A stretch of DNA of 64,000 bases from Candidatus Yanofskybacteria bacterium (lineage in GTDB: Bacteria; Patescibacteriota; Minisyncoccia; 2-02-FULL-40-12; IGHO2-01-FULL-4-A). Shown here piece after piece: positions 27 to 15,337 of the stretch. The notes under the pieces were generated by a model. That model was given only the letters and a program-made list of their open reading frames with translations, was not told where the DNA came from and did no database searches. The stretch covers positions 7,718 to 71,717 of the forward strand of contig JACOZV010000004.1 in assembly GCA_016181175.1 (NCBI GenBank), written 5' to 3'. Each line of letters begins with the position of its first letter. Position 1 is the first letter of the stretch. The position numbers were made by a program, and so were the translations under genes.

Positions 27-62
27 CCAACCAAAAACCCCGATAACGGGGTTTTTGGTTGG
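27..62. other. perfect 15-bp stem / 6-nt loop hairpin (ccaaccaaaaacccc-gataac-ggggtttttggttgg)
   Basis: Inverted repeat read directly. It lies 3' of tRNA-Trp on the minus strand. There is no clean U-tract after the stem, so a terminator role is uncertain. Confidence 0.4.
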
Positions 63-122
63 GTCCTTCCTTCGCGGTCTAGAAGCGGGTTTTACCCGCC
101 GTAGCCCGCTTAGGTGGGCGAA
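63..122 (-). ncRNA. unassigned GC-rich structured element immediately 3' of tRNA-Trp
   Basis: On the minus strand, CCTTCGC...GCGAAGG encloses the nested hairpin GCGGG-TAAAA-CCCGC. It is GC-rich in an AT-rich genome. I recognise no family. Confidence 0.25.
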
Positions 123-1126: not shown

Positions 1127-1142
1127 TATTTTGGCCAACCGA

Positions 1143-1217
1143 TGGAGCCGACCCCGAGATTCGAACTCGGAACCTACGCTTTACAAAAGCGTTGCTCTGC
1201 CGTTGAGCTAGATCGGC
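1143..1217 (-). tRNA. trnT: tRNA-Thr (anticodon TGT), CCA encoded
   Basis: The reverse complement gives GCCGATC-TA-GCTCAACGGCAGAGC-A-ACGCT-TTTGTAA-AGCGT-AGGTT-CCGAG-TTCGAAT-CTCGG-GGTCGGC-T-CCA. Confidence 0.85.
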
Positions 1218-1822
1218 AACTTTTCCAATTTTTTTAAGAGTCGTGTGAGTTTGTTCCGAGTTGTTTCGTCCTCCGGATCAAGTTCTGCGGCTTTTTTAAA
1301 AGACTCAACTGCATCGTGCCACTCCTCCATTTTCATATATATATTGCCTAATTTTTTATAAAGCCCAGCGTCCTTTGGATTTGTTGCTATTTCAAGAATC
1401 AACTTATGTTCTTGCTCTTCTAAATCTACTCCCCTGCCACTGTCGCTACTAATCCTGACTTCTTGTTCGGCCTGGGCGGCCGCTTCGCTACTTATCACGC
1501 TCTCGTGATGCATCACTGATTTGCGAACCCTATTGATTAACCGATTGGTGACCGCGTCAAGTTTTAGCGAAAATAGTCTTAATTTCCTCAAAAATTTTTC
1601 AAATTCAGCAAGAAAATTAAGACGATATTGCCTTAAATCTACTTTCTGAATATAGGCAGTGGGCACCGGAAAAAATTCAGCCCAAAAACCAGACTGTTCC
1701 GGCACAACACTCTCAACCACTTCGGGGGTAAGTTTTTTAAGATAAACGAACTTTCGGCTTATAATCCAGCCGATAGAGACTATAGAGAAAATAAAAATAC
1801 CAAATGGAATGAAAAAAAACAT
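1208..1822 (-). CDS. hypothetical membrane-anchored protein with C-terminal TPR-like helical repeat
   Basis: ORF 1208..1843. An N-terminal TM helix (FFFIPFGIFIFSIVSIGWII) is followed by a charged helical region. The likely start is the internal Met at 1822 because the annotated start overlaps tsf. The stop codon overlaps the tRNA-Thr 5' end by about 10 nt. Confidence 0.5.
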   Translation of the reverse strand: MFFFIPFGIFIFSIVSIGWIISRKFVYLKKLTPEVVESVVPEQSGFWAEFFPVPTAYIQKVDLRQYRLNFLAEFEKFLRKLRLFSLKLDAVTNRLINRVRKSVMHHESVISSEAAAQAEQEVRISSDSGRGVDLEEQEHKLILEIATNPKDAGLYKKLGNIYMKMEEWHDAVESFKKAAELDPEDETTRNKLTRLLKKLEKLPI

Positions 1823-1824
1823 GT

Positions 1825-2274
1825 TTAGAGTTGCAGTCGGCAAAACTTACCTATCTTTATGTTCTCCCCGAGTTTAGCTATATATTGAGTTATCAATTCT
1901 TCAACGGTAACATCTTGATCGCGAATATATGGCTGGCTTAAAAGCTCGGGGCCGTCTTGCGGATCCATTGCCGCAACCTGCATCGCCACCTCGTGGGCCA
2001 GTTCACTGAACATGGGATTTCGCGCCACAAAATCCGTTTCGCACAAAAGTTCCAACAATACACCCACTTTTTTGTTGGAATGAATATAGGCCTCAACTAA
2101 TCCTTGTCCGGTAGTACGCAATGCCTTTTTTTCAGCCACCTTAACGCCATGTGCCTTTAATACCTCCAAAGCTCGCGCCTTATCCCCGCCGGATTCATCC
2201 AGAGCTTTTTTTATCTCGTTAAAAGACAGGCCTGTTGAATCACGAAGTTCTTTTAATAGTTCTACATGGGACAT
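1825..2274 (-). CDS. tsf: elongation factor Ts (short form)
   Basis: The N-terminus MSHVELLKELRDSTGLSFNEIKKALDESGGDKARALEVLKAHG is the EF-Ts UBA-like start. It lies directly downstream of rpsB. Confidence 0.85.
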   Translation of the reverse strand: MSHVELLKELRDSTGLSFNEIKKALDESGGDKARALEVLKAHGVKVAEKKALRTTGQGLVEAYIHSNKKVGVLLELLCETDFVARNPMFSELAHEVAMQVAAMDPQDGPELLSQPYIRDQDVTVEELITQYIAKLGENIKIGKFCRLQL

Positions 2275-2289
2275 ACATAATTGGGTTAA

Positions 2290-2988
2290 TTAAGGATTAG
2301 TGACGCCCTTGCATATTGCTTCCAATATGAGTTCTACTGATTTCTTGGAATTGTCGTTGGCCCCGATAGGATAATCGATCAGTTTGGGGTCACTATCGGT
2401 ATTAACTATGCCAACGACTTTAACACCTGCTCTTTTGGCTTCATGAACTGGCAATTGGCTCTCCTTAAGCGAGGTAATAAAAATTATGTCGGGAATACGT
2501 GACAGTTTGCGGATACCGCCGAATTTCAACTTCAGGCCTGCGATTTCTTTTTCTTTTAACACCTTTTCTTTTTTAGTAAACTTGTCAAAACCGCCTTCGG
2601 CTTGTTTTTTTTCAAGTTCTTCCAAATATTTAATCCTACCGGTAATTGTTTTGAAATTTGTCAAAGTGCCCCCAAGCCAGCGGTTGATTACATACGGCAT
2701 ACCCAATGTCTCGGCTGTTGTTTTAATCGAGTCGGCAGATTGTTTGGTCAAACCAACAAATAAAATCATCTTGCTTTCTGCCATGGCTTTCTTTAAAAAA
2801 TCCACCGCCTTAACGAGCGAATCTGTTGTTTTGATCAAATCTAATATATAGATATTATCTTTCAGGGTATAGATGTACGGTTTCATGTTTGGGTGGAAAA
2901 TCGTCTTCTTGCGCCCAAAATGCATCCCCGCCCTTACCATATCCTCATAGGCCGGCAAAAAACTGATTGTATTGTTTACTTCAGGCAT
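2290..2988 (-). CDS. rpsB: 30S ribosomal protein S2
   Basis: MHFGRKKTIFHPNMKPYIY...ILFVGLTKQ...VVGIVNTDSDP are S2 hallmarks. I take the start at the internal Met (2988); the ORF is called to 3045. Confidence 0.9.
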   Translation of the reverse strand: MPEVNNTISFLPAYEDMVRAGMHFGRKKTIFHPNMKPYIYTLKDNIYILDLIKTTDSLVKAVDFLKKAMAESKMILFVGLTKQSADSIKTTAETLGMPYVINRWLGGTLTNFKTITGRIKYLEELEKKQAEGGFDKFTKKEKVLKEKEIAGLKLKFGGIRKLSRIPDIIFITSLKESQLPVHEAKRAGVKVVGIVNTDSDPKLIDYPIGANDNSKKSVELILEAICKGVTNP

Positions 2989-3079
2989 GCTGAAAATAAT
3001 AACAAAAAAATTGGGGATATGCAACACAGCACTCGCCACCCACAAAAATTACAAACTTAATTAGCAATAGGATTTATCT

Positions 3080-3170
3080 ACCGGCTCCGCGCGCGCGTTT
3101 TGCTGGCCGCTACGCGAACAGGCACAAAACCCACGCGCCTTCACCGGAAAACCCGTCGGACTAGCACTTT
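3080..3170 (-). other. GC-rich, possibly structured leader upstream of rpsB
   Basis: A roughly 90-nt stretch at more than 60% GC in an AT-rich intergenic region, with multiple short complementary segments. Its position matches a ribosomal-protein leader. No family recognised. Confidence 0.2.
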
Positions 3171-3192
3171 GTCTTAGAAATTTACGACCGAT

Positions 3193-3215
3193 AAAAACTG
3201 CCGATTGGTATCGGC
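3193..3215 (-). terminator. rho-independent terminator (gccgataccaatcggc + T-run)
   Basis: Hairpin plus a T-tract on the minus strand downstream of the giant surface-protein gene. Confidence 0.55.
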
Positions 3216-3235
3216 TTGGGGTTTGTAATCTTTGA

Positions 3236-3263
3236 TGAAAAACAAAAGCCGAGGTGTCTCGGC
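3236..3263 (-). terminator. rho-independent terminator (gccgagacacctcggc + ttttgttttt)
   Basis: Hairpin plus a U-tract about 25 nt after the stop of ORF 3289..6984. Confidence 0.65.
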
Positions 3264-3288
3264 AAAAATTGACAGTTGCCCCTATGAC

Positions 3289-6200
3289 TTATTTATAAAA
3301 ATTCCAGAAATTTCCAAAAATATCTAACGCTTTGTCTTTTAACCCCCCCCCCCCCGTAACTTGTATTTCCAAACTGGAATCGCTGAAATTACCGGCCAGA
3401 TCAAAAACTCTGGCAGTTATTTTATGCTTTCCCGACTCAAAAAACGGGACAAGCAACTCCAAAGCAACAGGAAAAAATATTCCATCATCAATCTTAAAAT
3501 AAACAACCGGCTGAACAATTTCCTCGAAACCCACACTGAATTTAAATCTCACAGTCTCGCCGATTTTCACCGACAAAGAACTCGCCTTTATTACTGGCGG
3601 TGCCGGCGGCGTTGAATCAATCATAATTTTGAATTGGGAAACCGGCCCGAGACGGCCATCGGTGTCTTCTGCCTGGAGACGAAAATAGTATATGCTGTCT
3701 TCATCAATGGAGATGTTAAGAAAATTGTCCGAAGTTGAAACGGCTTTGCCCGGTATAAAGTCCGGGGTTTGATTCAACGCATAGTGATAAACGCCGCCTT
3801 CAAGCAACGGCCAAGCCAGCTGAATATCTTTTTTATGATACCAGCGATTGCTGTTGGGATGGCTTGGTGAAAATATGGGTATTATTTCATTAATGCTCGC
3901 GTTGGTTAATCCTTGTCGGGTAATACTGTAAAAAGCGTCACTTGCCGCCCTAAGCACATCGGTCCCCAAGCCGTCATTGGCAAGAACTTGCGTCCCTTCG
4001 GCGAATTTAAGCGAAGCCCCGCCCACAGTTAACGGCTGCACTACAAGCTCGGCTACCGTACCGGACGGTTCGGAAAATCCGGGATTAGGAACGCCGCAAA
4101 CAATTGTTACCGTTCCCGCCGCATTATCAATATCTTTTTCCAAAAAAAGTCCGGGATCGCACAAGGAATTGGCCGTCAAAATATCAACTATTTCAAACAC
4201 GCTCGGGTCATATTTTATTACCGCGCTCACGACATTGATAATTTCTCCACCGGTAAGCACCTTTATGGCAATGTTTTTTTCAACAAATTGGTTAATGATA
4301 TCCGCTTCAGGTTCAAATTTAATCGTAGAATTATAGATAGAATACGGCGCTCTTTCTAATTTTATAGAAATGCGGTCCAGTTTGTTGTAACTGATAAAAT
4401 ACATCACGGAAAATAAAGTCAGGGTTATAATTAAAATAGTTGGAATCCGATGCCTATGATGGAAAACACTCAGGAAAAAAGATAAATATATGAAAATCGC
4501 AAGAAAAGCAAGCGCCATAAAACCGGCCAAAACAATGCTATAGAAATTGTGGCTGGTCGGAAAAAGAATAATCGTTCCGCCGGGGCTTCCCTCAATTCCC
4601 GGAAATACGATATTGCTGACAATGTAATATTCCTCGCTTATTTTAAGTTCTTTGGCAAATTTAGGAACTTGTTTGGCAATTAGGTCGGAACCAACCGAGA
4701 AAAAGCTATTCAGTATAAAAATAGTATCCTTATCCTTTAAGCTTGTGCTGATTAAACCCTCCTCTGGAGTATAAAAAATAACATGCGAACCATTCTTCAA
4801 ATACTTGTCCTGAAACCGTACGGCATAAGAATTGTTAAATAAGTTTCCCAGAACAATAGCGCCGATAACTTTGTCATCTTCTAAAATAAGGGAGTTGCTT
4901 ATTGCGGCCAGGGGATTTTTGACCCCACGGACGATTTCAGTAACCGTTTCACCTTTAGCCACCCGCCTTCCTTGGATAGTGGTTTGAAAAACATTATCTC
5001 CGCGTTGATCCGGCAAATGTGAACGAACAAGCACAAATCCGTCCTTGTCAGTTACGGCAATAAAACTAAGTTCCCTTTCTTTTGCTTCAGCTTGCACGAT
5101 GGAGAGAAGCTCCAGCGTATCGCCTGCCTTCAGGGCATCGTTAAGAACTCCTGAAGAGACAATCTCCTCTCTTTGGTCAGAAATGTATTTGAGTTCCTCG
5201 GAAAAAACAGTCTTTAGTTGAATAATTTGTTTATCAGTTGAATAAGAATACCACAAGCCCAAGAGCCAGTTAGAAAATAGCATAATGATTACAAACACCA
5301 GAATGCTTAGCAATATTTCAATCATCTCTTTTTTGTGTATCCAGTCGGTTTTGCTTTTTTTATTTAATTTCTTTTTTTTACGATATTTTTTAATTAAATA
5401 ACTCTTAACTTCATGCCCAGTAGCTAGAATCTCCTTTTTTGTCGCGACAAAAATGAGCGCAATAATCAAAATAGAGGAAACCAAAAGCCATTCATTTTTA
5501 ATAAAGTTAATGAAGCCGCCGAATATCTTTGTCAAAAAGTCAAAAATTAGTTCGGTAAAAGACCCGGATTTTACCCTAAATGATACTCGGTTAGAATCAA
5601 TAGAAATGGCACTCCTGTCATCAACCGCCTGCGCCGTCACCTCGTGGCGACCTCCTCGTTCCGGCTTAAACTCAACCTGCCAATATCCATTGGCATCGGC
5701 GTGCGTTTCCAGTATGTATTCCGGGTTGACCCTGATGGCAACCCGAACTTTTTGGTTGGGCTTGGCTTTTCCATTTATAGTAATGGTTTCGCCTATTTTA
5801 ACTTGCGGCTTTTCTATTTGATTTAAAATCACCGGCTCTATTGATTGAATCTCCATTTGATAGTCAGATTCTGAATAATTCCCTGCTTTATCAAAAGCTC
5901 TTATGATAATCTTGCGCACCCCTGGCAATTGCAAAGGCATTTTATATAATCCGGCCAACCCCGGTTCTATTTTTAACCAGTCACTCTCACCGATTTTCAT
6001 TTCATATCTATCAATACCAGATGTACCGTCTGAAGTATCAAAAGCGAGTCTGGGTTGCGGGTTGGTTAAGTCCGCCACATCCAATCTGGTTATTTTAAAA
6101 TCTGCGGGTTTTTGGGTATCAACGTTAAACTTAAACGAAGTTACGGGACCTAATCCCGCTGGTGTTTTCGCACGGGCGTTAAAATAAAATTCGCCCTCTC

Positions 6201-6984
6201 CTACATCATCCAGAACTTTTTCTGAAATCGGAGGATCATAGCTTATTATCGGCGGGGAATTGTTTCTTCGGCTCAAAACCAAAATGACCTCGCCGGTATC
6301 TACCGGCAAATCCCATTTGAAAATTGGGTTATTATTTGAATACCACTTTAACTGGTCTGGATGGGTAGACGATGTAATAATCAACTGCTCCGCTGAAACA
6401 GGAGCGGGAGTTGTGACTATTTTGGGCGTTGCTTGAGACGATGCCTGCGGCGATACCGGTGTTACCTTTGGTAATACCGATATTGCCCTTAAAACATAAG
6501 CTCCGCCCGCTAACGATGATAAAACATTCGTACCCTGCCCATCATTGGCTAAAACCGCGCCGGATGAAAAAGAAACTTGAGTAGTTGCCACCGCCTTTGC
6601 CTTGAAGTTTATAGTAAGAATATTGCCTGATGTTCCCGTATATCCAGGATTAAAAACAATGCCGCCGAAATTTATCGTTCCCAGCGCATTGGAAAAATCG
6701 GGTTCTTGCACCCAGAGACTGAAAATAGAACCAGTCCTCGTAAGAGACGTAACCGCGAGTTCAGCAGGATTAAATTTTAGTATGCCTACAGCGGCGTTAA
6801 TTGAAACACCGGCGCTATTAATCCTGATAGAAACACTAAAGTTGCTCCCATTATTATAAGTTCCCGAACCTGGAGATATAAAAAGCGTCGCGGCTCGCGC
6901 TAAAGAAAAGGGAAACAGAAACAAAAGCAAAGAAATTGCTGGAATTGCCCACTGCTTTTTAAATTTTATTTTTAACCCCTCCAA
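3289..6984 (-). CDS. giant cell-surface protein: signal peptide, cohesin-like N-terminal domain, FN3/Ig-like repeats, four central TM helices, and a second cohesin-like module
   Basis: Signal peptide MEGLKIKFKKQWAIPAISLLLFLFPFSLARA. Cohesin-like motif LFISPGSG...FSVSIRINSAGVSINAAVGILKFNPAELAV, repeated near the C-terminus (NQFVEKNIAIKVL...IKYDPSVFEIVDI). TM segments near the middle. Confidence 0.75.
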   Translation of the reverse strand: MEGLKIKFKKQWAIPAISLLLFLFPFSLARAATLFISPGSGTYNNGSNFSVSIRINSAGVSINAAVGILKFNPAELAVTSLTRTGSIFSLWVQEPDFSNALGTINFGGIVFNPGYTGTSGNILTINFKAKAVATTQVSFSSGAVLANDGQGTNVLSSLAGGAYVLRAISVLPKVTPVSPQASSQATPKIVTTPAPVSAEQLIITSSTHPDQLKWYSNNNPIFKWDLPVDTGEVILVLSRRNNSPPIISYDPPISEKVLDDVGEGEFYFNARAKTPAGLGPVTSFKFNVDTQKPADFKITRLDVADLTNPQPRLAFDTSDGTSGIDRYEMKIGESDWLKIEPGLAGLYKMPLQLPGVRKIIIRAFDKAGNYSESDYQMEIQSIEPVILNQIEKPQVKIGETITINGKAKPNQKVRVAIRVNPEYILETHADANGYWQVEFKPERGGRHEVTAQAVDDRSAISIDSNRVSFRVKSGSFTELIFDFLTKIFGGFINFIKNEWLLVSSILIIALIFVATKKEILATGHEVKSYLIKKYRKKKKLNKKSKTDWIHKKEMIEILLSILVFVIIMLFSNWLLGLWYSYSTDKQIIQLKTVFSEELKYISDQREEIVSSGVLNDALKAGDTLELLSIVQAEAKERELSFIAVTDKDGFVLVRSHLPDQRGDNVFQTTIQGRRVAKGETVTEIVRGVKNPLAAISNSLILEDDKVIGAIVLGNLFNNSYAVRFQDKYLKNGSHVIFYTPEEGLISTSLKDKDTIFILNSFFSVGSDLIAKQVPKFAKELKISEEYYIVSNIVFPGIEGSPGGTIILFPTSHNFYSIVLAGFMALAFLAIFIYLSFFLSVFHHRHRIPTILIITLTLFSVMYFISYNKLDRISIKLERAPYSIYNSTIKFEPEADIINQFVEKNIAIKVLTGGEIINVVSAVIKYDPSVFEIVDILTANSLCDPGLFLEKDIDNAAGTVTIVCGVPNPGFSEPSGTVAELVVQPLTVGGASLKFAEGTQVLANDGLGTDVLRAASDAFYSITRQGLTNASINEIIPIFSPSHPNSNRWYHKKDIQLAWPLLEGGVYHYALNQTPDFIPGKAVSTSDNFLNISIDEDSIYYFRLQAEDTDGRLGPVSQFKIMIDSTPPAPPVIKASSLSVKIGETVRFKFSVGFEEIVQPVVYFKIDDGIFFPVALELLVPFFESGKHKITARVFDLAGNFSDSSLEIQVTGGGGLKDKALDIFGNFWNFYK
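3343..3355. repeat. homopolymeric C13 (G13 on the coding strand) inside the 3' end of the giant surface-protein gene
   Basis: 13 consecutive C read directly. It encodes GGGG, 20 codons before the stop. Confidence 0.95.
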
Positions 6985-13339: not shown

Positions 13340-15337
13340 TTAAGTGTCCGGTGAAGTTTCCGAAAGCGGAGATTCTTCTGACGGAGGCGGCTCTGGCGTT
13401 GCTTGCGGTAAGCTTGTTGAATCCGGTTCAGGAGTTGGCTCTTCCACTGGAGGTTGAACCTCTACTTGAGGTTCAACCTCGGCGGATGGCGTAGGTTCCG
13501 GAGGTGGCGATTCTTCTATTATTGGCTCCGCCGTGGACTCTTCGGATACGGATGGTTCTGATTCTGAAGTCGGTTCTATGCTCGACTCCGGAGTTGCCAA
13601 AGATTCGTAATCTTTTGAAGGAATTGGCGTCGGTTCTGGCTGTGAATTATTGAGGATACTCGGAATAACCGAACACTCACCCGGTATGTGAACCAGTTGT
13701 CCCCTTGTCATTCTTACGCAATACGGCTCCCCTGTTTCGGTATCATAAAACGTAATGCCGTTTGGCCGGTCTCGACTCCCTATGGTTAGCGAGTCGGCTT
13801 TAAGCGCCCCTGAGAAAAACGCATTACCTAAACTGTCAAAGGTAATTACCGGCGGACCAGTGCCTCGCCCCAAGCTTGAAGGACCAAATGAAGTAGAGAA
13901 TGAATCTGAAGCAACATTGAAAATACTAAATACGCCGCCATTGGCCAATTTAAACCCGACATCATCATCCACCGGCTCAATGATGTTCACGACCAGCGTA
14001 TCAGTTAAGACCCGCGGTGAAATAATTTCCAATCCGGCTATTATTCTATCAGTATATATTTCCGACAAAGATGTGCTGGCTGTTATTTCCTGCTTGTGAC
14101 TTAACATCTGGGCCAGTACCAGGCGCCCGATATCAATATCTTCTGGTATCTCATCCATATTGACCCCATATTTGCCAAGAACCGACTTTGTCCTGGCTCC
14201 GGTAGAATATGTTGTGGAAATGAACATTAAGATTTTACCTTGGTCTTCAGGAAAACCATCAGATTGGCTAGCAACACTGACGTCAAAATCTTCCAATGCC
14301 GAACCAATTATTAATCCCGCTTTATCAGTCCTTACTGCGACACCCGGAACATCGGATGCGGTAAGCAAATCGCCTTTTTTAATTTCACCATTTGCAGTTG
14401 AAACCTTAACAAGCGCCGTTCCCGACAAAGCTACGGGTTGGGTATCCGACGGCCTTTGGTCGTTCAGGTCTTTATTCATTATTTGAAATGGATCAGTAGA
14501 GATAACCCCAACTACACGGTCTTCAGGGGTTGCTTTTTTAAGAACTGCTGTTTTCTGGAGACCTTGTTTTGAGTCATATGAGGTGTCATTGGGGCCTACA
14601 GCCACCACATCACCGGGCTCTACACCATCTTCAACCACGAAATATTCTGCCAAGTCGGAACCATTGGTACCCGAAAGAGCCCAGACGATAACTGCACCGG
14701 CTGCTCCGGCGGCACCTTTTCCAAGGTTTGCAGAACCACCGCCTCCAGCGCCACCTGGAGCTGCTCCGATTGTTCCATTGCCATTATGAGCTGAGCCAGC
14801 CCCCGAACCCCCGCCGCCACCCGCACCACCCATCGGACTTCCTCCACCATCGCCGCCACCGGCGCCGGCAACTGCGGCAAAACCTGAACCGCCATTGCTT
14901 CCGCTTAGATTTAAGGTACCGCCAATTGCACTCCCCCCCACACCACCAACACCATTGGCAAGTCCTAATCCCCCGCCATTACCTTGAATATTAGCCCCAC
15001 CATTAAGTGCGCCTGTAAATCTGCTTAAATTTCCAACAACTCCGACGGTGCCACCGGTACCAACAACGATAGACACATTTCCGTTGACAGCCGTTATTCC
15101 CGCACTATACCCACCACCACCACCACCACCACCACCGTTTATCGCCGCAGCATTATTTCCACCAGCACCGCCGCCCCATACTTCCACATAAACCTGATTA
15201 ACATACGCCTGTTTAACCCAATTGCCATTAGCAGTGAAGGCGTTTATAGCTTCAATACCAAATCCCGCATCACCGCTACCAGCAGAGGTATCATCATCAC
15301 CACACGAAAATTTTCCTGTTGTTATATCCCAACCCAA
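13340..15337 (-). CDS. glycine-rich tail-fibre-like protein, C-terminal segment (frame C), with Pro/Glu/Ser-rich tail
   Basis: ORF call; the 'start' is a TTG artefact. This frame stays open upstream to about 15495 (PDPGFNFDSSLYIFDISKGLHALAALTSVGSASFNGG...). It contains long GGxGG tracts. Confidence 0.55.
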   Translation of the reverse strand: MGWDITTGKFSCGDDDTSAGSGDAGFGIEAINAFTANGNWVKQAYVNQVYVEVWGGGAGGNNAAAINGGGGGGGGGYSAGITAVNGNVSIVVGTGGTVGVVGNLSRFTGALNGGANIQGNGGGLGLANGVGGVGGSAIGGTLNLSGSNGGSGFAAVAGAGGGDGGGSPMGGAGGGGGSGAGSAHNGNGTIGAAPGGAGGGGSANLGKGAAGAAGAVIVWALSGTNGSDLAEYFVVEDGVEPGDVVAVGPNDTSYDSKQGLQKTAVLKKATPEDRVVGVISTDPFQIMNKDLNDQRPSDTQPVALSGTALVKVSTANGEIKKGDLLTASDVPGVAVRTDKAGLIIGSALEDFDVSVASQSDGFPEDQGKILMFISTTYSTGARTKSVLGKYGVNMDEIPEDIDIGRLVLAQMLSHKQEITASTSLSEIYTDRIIAGLEIISPRVLTDTLVVNIIEPVDDDVGFKLANGGVFSIFNVASDSFSTSFGPSSLGRGTGPPVITFDSLGNAFFSGALKADSLTIGSRDRPNGITFYDTETGEPYCVRMTRGQLVHIPGECSVIPSILNNSQPEPTPIPSKDYESLATPESSIEPTSESEPSVSEESTAEPIIEESPPPEPTPSAEVEPQVEVQPPVEEPTPEPDSTSLPQATPEPPPSEESPLSETSPDT

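Follow-up and report, generated by a model that had tools for sequence, protein, structure and literature searches.

Repeats at the 3' end of coding sequences that switch the carboxyl-terminal sequence of a protein among the three reading frames form a described class of variation, treated in PMC5320596 as C-terminal phase variation. The cases mentioned there include Helicobacter canadensis (Snyder 2010), NGK_1211, mafB, pilin and ispH of Neisseria gonorrhoeae (Zelewska 2016), and Streptococcus agalactiae, where a C-terminal cell-wall anchor motif is gained or lost by slippage (Janulczyk 2010; PMC5320596). The classical poly-G/C contingency loci of Campylobacter jejuni, Neisseria and Haemophilus also place a long slippage-prone G/C run in the gene of a surface-exposed product, but the run is found near the 5' end or the promoter, slippage abolishes the product, and a genome has many such loci. 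Bacteria of the candidate phyla radiation (CPR, or Patescibacteria) are believed to spend their lives fixed to other cells; variation of their surface is known mainly through diversity-generating retroelements. A further case is a single in-frame repeat gene, a hypervariable 9-mer (PTD) repeat gene of a Gracilibacteria genome that undergoes slipped-strand-type variation (Sieber et al. 2019, PMC6851277). Here we describe a candidate for C-terminal phase variation in Candidatus Yanofskybacteria, an uncultured groundwater bacterium represented by a metagenome-assembled genome (MAG). It is a run of thirteen G on the coding strand (G13; 3343..3355, -), read as C13 on the + strand, at the 3' end of an open reading frame (ORF) of 1231 codons (3289..6984, -) whose product has cohesin domains. 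Coordinates are those of the window, the whole 64,000-nucleotide stretch analysed, which is part of a contig of 126,662 bp (JACOZV010000004.1, assembly GCA_016181175.1); the protein is identical to the MAG's hypothetical protein (P0001).

The tract covers codons 1210-1214. Thr1210 (ACG) takes the first G as its third base, and the others encode Gly1211-1214, the four glycines read in an earlier note on this DNA, as four consecutive GGG codons. In the G13 frame the glycines are followed by a tail of seventeen sense codons (LKDKALDIFGNFWNFYK; 3292..3342, -) and by the TAA that ends the ORF (3289..3291, -), and not by the twenty codons before the stop that the note had counted. The same note had predicted that a slip of one base in either direction would replace or truncate the C-terminus, and both outcomes are read from the sequence. 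The loss of one G (G12) brings GGT TAA into frame right behind the hinge (...GGG GGT TAA; TAA at 3339..3341, -) and gives a tail-less protein, the same state as in the closest relative. The gain of one G (G14) leads to a different tail of 16 amino acids, VKRQSVRYFWKFLEFL, closed by TAA at 3293..3295 (-). At least 1214 of the 1231 residues, including all folded domains, are kept in every frame, so that the tract cannot act as an on/off switch.

G/C runs of this length are expected to slip in replication. We assign a probability of about one half to the reading that the tract is a genuine slippage-prone Gly4 hinge behind which a short C-terminal tail is variably present, that is, to a candidate case of C-terminal phase variation whose slippage is inferred. 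The hinge would join the last extracellular immunoglobulin (Ig)-like domain of a multi-pass cohesin membrane protein to a short C-terminal helix. Replication slippage would alter the C-terminal end only, the body of 1214 residues being made in all states, and the G12 state would reproduce the commonest C-terminus of the family, which is also that of the closest relative. The length of the tract would switch within populations, and the presence of the tail would matter, perhaps to the way the distal cohesin module associates with the membrane or with a partner.

Several features bring this locus close to the described cases of C-terminal phase variation. A G homopolymer is located near the 3' end of the gene of a surface/membrane protein, the three frames give three different ends while the body is kept, and related genomes may differ in tract length, to judge here from a single call at a contig end. 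The variable part lies past the last folded domain, where some relatives bear a membrane anchor. In contrast to those cases, the host is an uncultured member of the CPR and not a host-adapted pathogen, the tract is the only one in 64 kb, the tail has no recognised anchor motif, and any switching is a prediction from sequence. The resemblance to classical contingency loci is weaker, since 98.6% of the protein is encoded upstream of the tract and all frames stop within 17 codons. The description as a "classic contingency locus" in the earlier note was thus too strong: the part at stake is no more than the final 17 of 1231 residues, all of them outside folded domains, a single tract is present in 64 kb, G/C runs of at least 9 are rare in other CPR loci, and shared ancestry suffices to explain its conservation in two lineages. 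By its sequence features C-terminal phase variation appears to be the better-fitting class.

The protein is a cohesin protein, as the note had suspected. The Pfam Cohesin profile (PF00963) matches in two stretches with 38.7 bits, against a gathering score of 24.1; further Pfam matches are Big_13 and, below threshold, dCache_3. In order from the N-terminus it has a signal peptide, a cohesin, a THPD-WY domain, an Ig domain, Big_13, a transmembrane (TM) helix and a Lys-rich loop. After the loop follow a TM helix, a dCache-like domain, two TM helices, a cohesin, a SHPNSxRWY domain, an Ig domain, the Gly4 hinge and the tail. The C-terminal 671 residues were modelled with AlphaFold2 from 52 sequences (mean predicted local distance difference test score, pLDDT, of 89; predicted template modelling score, pTM, of 0.85). 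In the model a long helix at the N-terminus is followed by a Cache-like alpha/beta domain, a helical hairpin and three beta-sandwich domains, of which the one at residues 874-1022 corresponds to the cohesin module. The last Ig-like beta-sandwich (residues ~1131-1210; 3355..3594, -) is formed by strands within positions 571-650 of the modelled query with pLDDT above 90. Its last strand (640-650, SLEIQVT) is followed by a coil of the four glycines (651-654) and by a helix (655-670) predicted with low confidence (pLDDT 57, 46 and 34). The 17 tail residues are therefore outside every folded domain.

The Cache-like extracellular domain in this C-terminal half (residues 561-1231; 3289..5304, -) is placed between TM helices, has no cytoplasmic output domain and is joined to extracellular cohesin and Ig modules. 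To judge from the model, this coupling would be an unusual layout for a Cache sensor. Searches with the C-terminal 671 residues retrieved about 75 full-length homologues across Patescibacteria, which are stand-alone proteins of ~675 amino acids, while the N-terminal half has separate homologues of ~700 amino acids, several of them ending in a four-helix-bundle domain instead. Because the two halves are encoded separately in most relatives, the 1231-codon ORF is a fusion of two genes, with the junction at ~5250..5350. The fusion is common to the window and to the closest relative, and within the matches obtained the family was found among Patescibacteria only.

The tract is internal to the 126-kb contig and in frame. 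A second assembly, the Logan contig L002 (SRR12113430; 100%-identical strain/rpsB region), spans it and reads G13 as well. The closest relative, from a different sequencing run, has a G tract at the same codon on Logan contig L001, whose flanks are colinear with the window on both sides of the tract; this excludes that the tract marks a chimeric join or a contig-end poly-G artefact, and both were rejected. On some platforms with two-colour chemistry the cycles without signal yield poly-G, and a G16 at 52..67 of another CPR contig, L077, located 51 nt from the contig end and preceded by GA-rich low-complexity sequence, is probably such an artefact carried into a deposited MAG. For the window tract an origin of this kind, or in a chimeric join, has a negligible probability.

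The exact length of the tract is a more delicate matter. The closest homologue, P0002 on L001 (run SRR13727534), shares 81% of its amino acids and 83.6% of its nucleotides with the window gene. At the same codon it reads GCG GGG GGG GGG GAT TAA, that is, G11 followed by A, and ends as AGGGD*; one extra base would give …GGGG LK… as in the window. The comparison of tract length among strains that the earlier note had proposed thus gives a difference, 12 nt in the truncating frame against 13 nt, but the L001 contig ends 4 nt after the stop (9 nt past the tract) and the length call is weak. Three protein searches, a scan of GTDB genomes and a scan of Joint Genome Institute (JGI) metagenomes yielded as close relatives only P0002/L001 and P0017/L006. 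The latter (83% identity) is on a contig that ends ~120 codons short of the tract, and the best JGI match is 50% identical. The downstream flank of the L001 strain was sought through rpsB; this recovered only the same-strain contigs L002 and L003 and other relatives, which miss the tract region or have no giant gene upstream of rpsB.

L006 (HYT65 Yanofskybacteria MAG) offers a separate observation on the evolution of the protein. Its C-terminal half (2818..4395) is 83% identical to that of the window while the homologue of the N-terminal half, encoded upstream (1128..2156), has an identity of only 42%. As far as the sequences indicate, the N-terminal module of this relative may either have diverged much faster or have been exchanged.

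The three Logan contigs that cover the locus all break close to the tract, at most ~125 nt away: L001 terminates just past it (7486), while the start of L002 is 48 nt before the tract and that of L003 ~120 nt after it. Such breaks would be produced by trouble in sequencing as well as by heterogeneous length. On Illumina platforms long G runs are prone to error, and a miscalled length, with a true tract of for example G12 (...TGGGG*), would turn both the tail and the difference to L001 into sequencing or assembly errors. A true G12 would also give the commonest C-terminus of the family. The MAG and L002 perhaps derive from the same or sister read sets, in which case their agreement may not be independent. 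Yet G13 was obtained by two different assemblers, and the frame it sets encodes a tail with a paralogous match in the same protein (see below), so that a miscall is considered unlikely although it has to be taken seriously.

The composition of the tract is unusual for the window, which contains the exact 13-mer a single time; 100 dinucleotide-preserving shuffles never produced it. As the earlier note had stated, it is the sole long homopolymer: all others measure 8 or less, and the next among G/C runs is a C7 at 14933. In other CPR loci totalling 1.01 Mb G/C runs of at least 9 were found six times, and only the L077 G16 attains at least 13. GGG is the rarest glycine codon of the window (11.2% of Gly codons), and the other glycine runs avoid it, being written with mixed codons or GGT. 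Random codon choice would give four GGG in a row with a probability of 0.112^4, or ~1.6e-4, an improbability that suggests either that the run grew by slippage or that a homopolymer was selected for. A second simple-sequence repeat of the window is of a different type, a perfect (GGT)8 followed by GGG at 15111..15136 that encodes nine glycines in frame within the ORF 13340..15337 (-) (CCA x8.7 with 100% matches in Tandem Repeats Finder).

An alternative to the slippage-prone hinge with a variable tail is that a glycine hinge at the natural end of the protein was enlarged neutrally by slippage. The functional protein would then end at the hinge or close to it, as it does in most relatives, the tail would be an accidental read-through into AT-rich 3' sequence, and changes in length would be of no consequence for selection. 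We regard this possibility as a serious one while giving it clearly less than even odds. Matches of tblastn in ~160 loci stop at query residues 647-651, precisely at the tract, which is thereby placed on a domain boundary where family homology ends. About half (~55%) of 123 family C-termini stop 1-4 residues past the last strand, and L001 stops at the hinge, as expected if the tail was acquired by chance. An open stretch of 17 codons has a probability of ~0.18 at random, by a rough estimate from the base composition of this AT-rich region.

Another fifth or so of the 123 C-termini carry hydrophobic tails of 10-25 amino acids that seem conserved inside small groups of relatives (SLIFxLxxPLxRF, n=4; GT[IV]LQ[ST]ILHxR, n=3; NTPFV[RK]NFINIFV[NK], n=2). 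Short tails can thus be functional, which speaks against a purely accidental origin, as does the fact that both assemblies of the strain are in the tail frame. About one fifth end in a TM anchor; these are mostly distant matches that cover the cohesin-Ig module alone. The tail is thus a labile module in the family, probably functional where present.

Homopolymers were also noted elsewhere in two family loci. In a distant member on L138 a C9 (1896..1904; Pro-Pro-Pro) coincides with a change of reading frame, with YFHLKAKRTPPP in one frame and …GGTSHFKIMIDTIP in another, and can be either a homopolymer-associated frameshift or a sequencing error. In a Niyogibacteria MAG (L020) a C10 (2718..2727) followed by TCTCTCT precedes the start of the family homologue (ORF 2812..4848) by 85 nt, just 3' of a TATAAT-like box and ahead of a terminator-like hairpin. 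It may be a homopolymer of a promoter or of a 5' untranslated region.

The G13 tail itself is aromatic and weakly amphipathic, and its mean hydrophobicity of 0.08 makes it too polar for a TM helix. Its best local match in its own protein aligns IFGNFWNFYK with IFGGFINFIK (residues 487-496), a juxtamembrane segment that follows the Ig-type domain in the N-terminal half, just ahead of a TM helix and in a position equivalent to that of the tail. This score is reached by 16 of 1000 composition-preserving shuffles, and the G14-frame tail has no match in the protein. The resemblance would give modest support to G13 as a coding frame rather than an accidental read-through. Within the tail-coding DNA, however, a 10-nt near-repeat AAAATTTCCA is present 2.5 times (3297..3321) and generates the peptide FGNFWNF, so that the resemblance carries less weight and the neutral alternative gains some ground.

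A number of further results weigh against the slippage-prone hinge with a variable tail as a meaningful arrangement. The length difference in L001, already fragile because of its position, may be a sequencing or assembly error. No homopolymer is found at the C-terminal junction in any of ~120 other family loci, and the tract is unique in the 64 kb. A hidden Markov model built from 36 family tails does not tell the G13 frame, the G14 frame and the stop-shortened form apart from each other or from 1000 shuffles. For neither tail is the helical hydrophobic moment significant, with p ~0.06 for G13 and ~0.05 for G14. Sorting-signal models (LPXTG, GlyGly-CTERM, PEP-CTERM and similar) of NCBIfam gave no match for either tail frame with E-values up to 10. 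Four-fold sites have stayed the same between the window and L001 in 71% of cases, and common descent would therefore be expected to preserve three to four GGG codons in both. The persistence of the tract in the two lineages is accordingly not significant and provides no evidence of selection on the homopolymer, an idea that was discarded. Finally, 17 residues may have no effect on phenotype at all. The failure of the tail profile and of amphipathicity to set the G13 tail apart from shuffles, the low pLDDT of the tail, the lack of an NCBIfam sorting motif and a tract conservation explicable without selection all agree with neutral growth.

A mixture of tailed and tail-less protein could in principle also arise from a fixed gene, at the RNA or protein level, by polymerase slippage on the C13 template or by ribosomal frameshifting on the four GGG codons. 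Homopolymers of at least 9 are known substrates of transcriptional slippage, and this run is long enough; GGG is moreover the rarest glycine codon here. The three frames all terminate ahead of an intrinsic-terminator-like element (3238..3263, -), made of a hairpin GCCGAG-ACAC-CTCGGC (3263..3248) that begins 26 nt past the stop and of a T run, TTTTGTTTTT. Nonetheless, the zero frame runs uninterrupted between the start codon and TAA and needs no recoding, no stimulatory structure is present, and documented bacterial transcriptional slippage concerns mostly A/T runs. We regard this explanation as very improbable.

Past the terminator-like hairpin come rpsB and then a short tsf. The latter (1825..2274, -) encodes an EF-Ts of only 149 amino acids that matches positions 1-75 of the 204 in the Pfam EF_TS profile, and is a truncated form. 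The segment 3289..9730 (-) is a conserved CPR surface gene cluster that includes a dockerin-like protein of 599 amino acids (Dockerin_1, 22.6 bits against a cut-off of 22.9). The dockerin-like gene, a gene for a cohesin protein of 299 amino acids and the homologue of the N-terminal half are near one another and in this order in several distant Patescibacteria, for instance on L071 and L129, beside the family gene. Two Pfam cohesin modules, with a cohesin protein and a borderline dockerin protein as neighbours, recall the scaffoldins of cellulosomes. In contrast to scaffoldins, the protein crosses the membrane several times and includes a dCache-like sensor domain, and its family is restricted to Patescibacteria among the matches found. 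No carbohydrate-active enzyme was identified in the six ORFs scanned against Pfam.

The comparison with the PTD gene of Gracilibacteria is closer in terms of organism. Both concern large extracellular CPR proteins and variation of the slipped-strand type, for which the window tract is a candidate; the PTD gene was noticed through fragmented assemblies. They differ in that the PTD repeat is an in-frame array of 9-nt units that changes in copy number, supported by read-level evidence, while the present tract is a frame-shifting mononucleotide run recognised from sequence alone. Within the collection of papers searched, no report of homopolymer phase variation in CPR/Patescibacteria was retrieved. 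Beyond a slippage-prone hinge, it is conceivable, but improbable in our estimate, that the tract is a selected switch by which a population of episymbiotic Yanofskybacteria would alternate among versions of the distal cohesin module with the tail, without it and with the alternative one, altering the hold on the surface or the engagement of a partner or host.

The tract is a plausible mutable site of modest consequence, with neutral growth of the hinge and a miscalled length as serious rivals. The stakes are modest, as the variable part amounts to 17 residues outside folded domains and the supporting evidence to one base at one contig end. If the slippage-prone hinge is genuine, switching of a cohesin surface protein through slippage of a mononucleotide run would represent for the CPR a cheap, pathogen-style mechanism of variation. 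A selected switch, if true, would be the first documented case in Patescibacteria of phase variation by a simple-sequence repeat.

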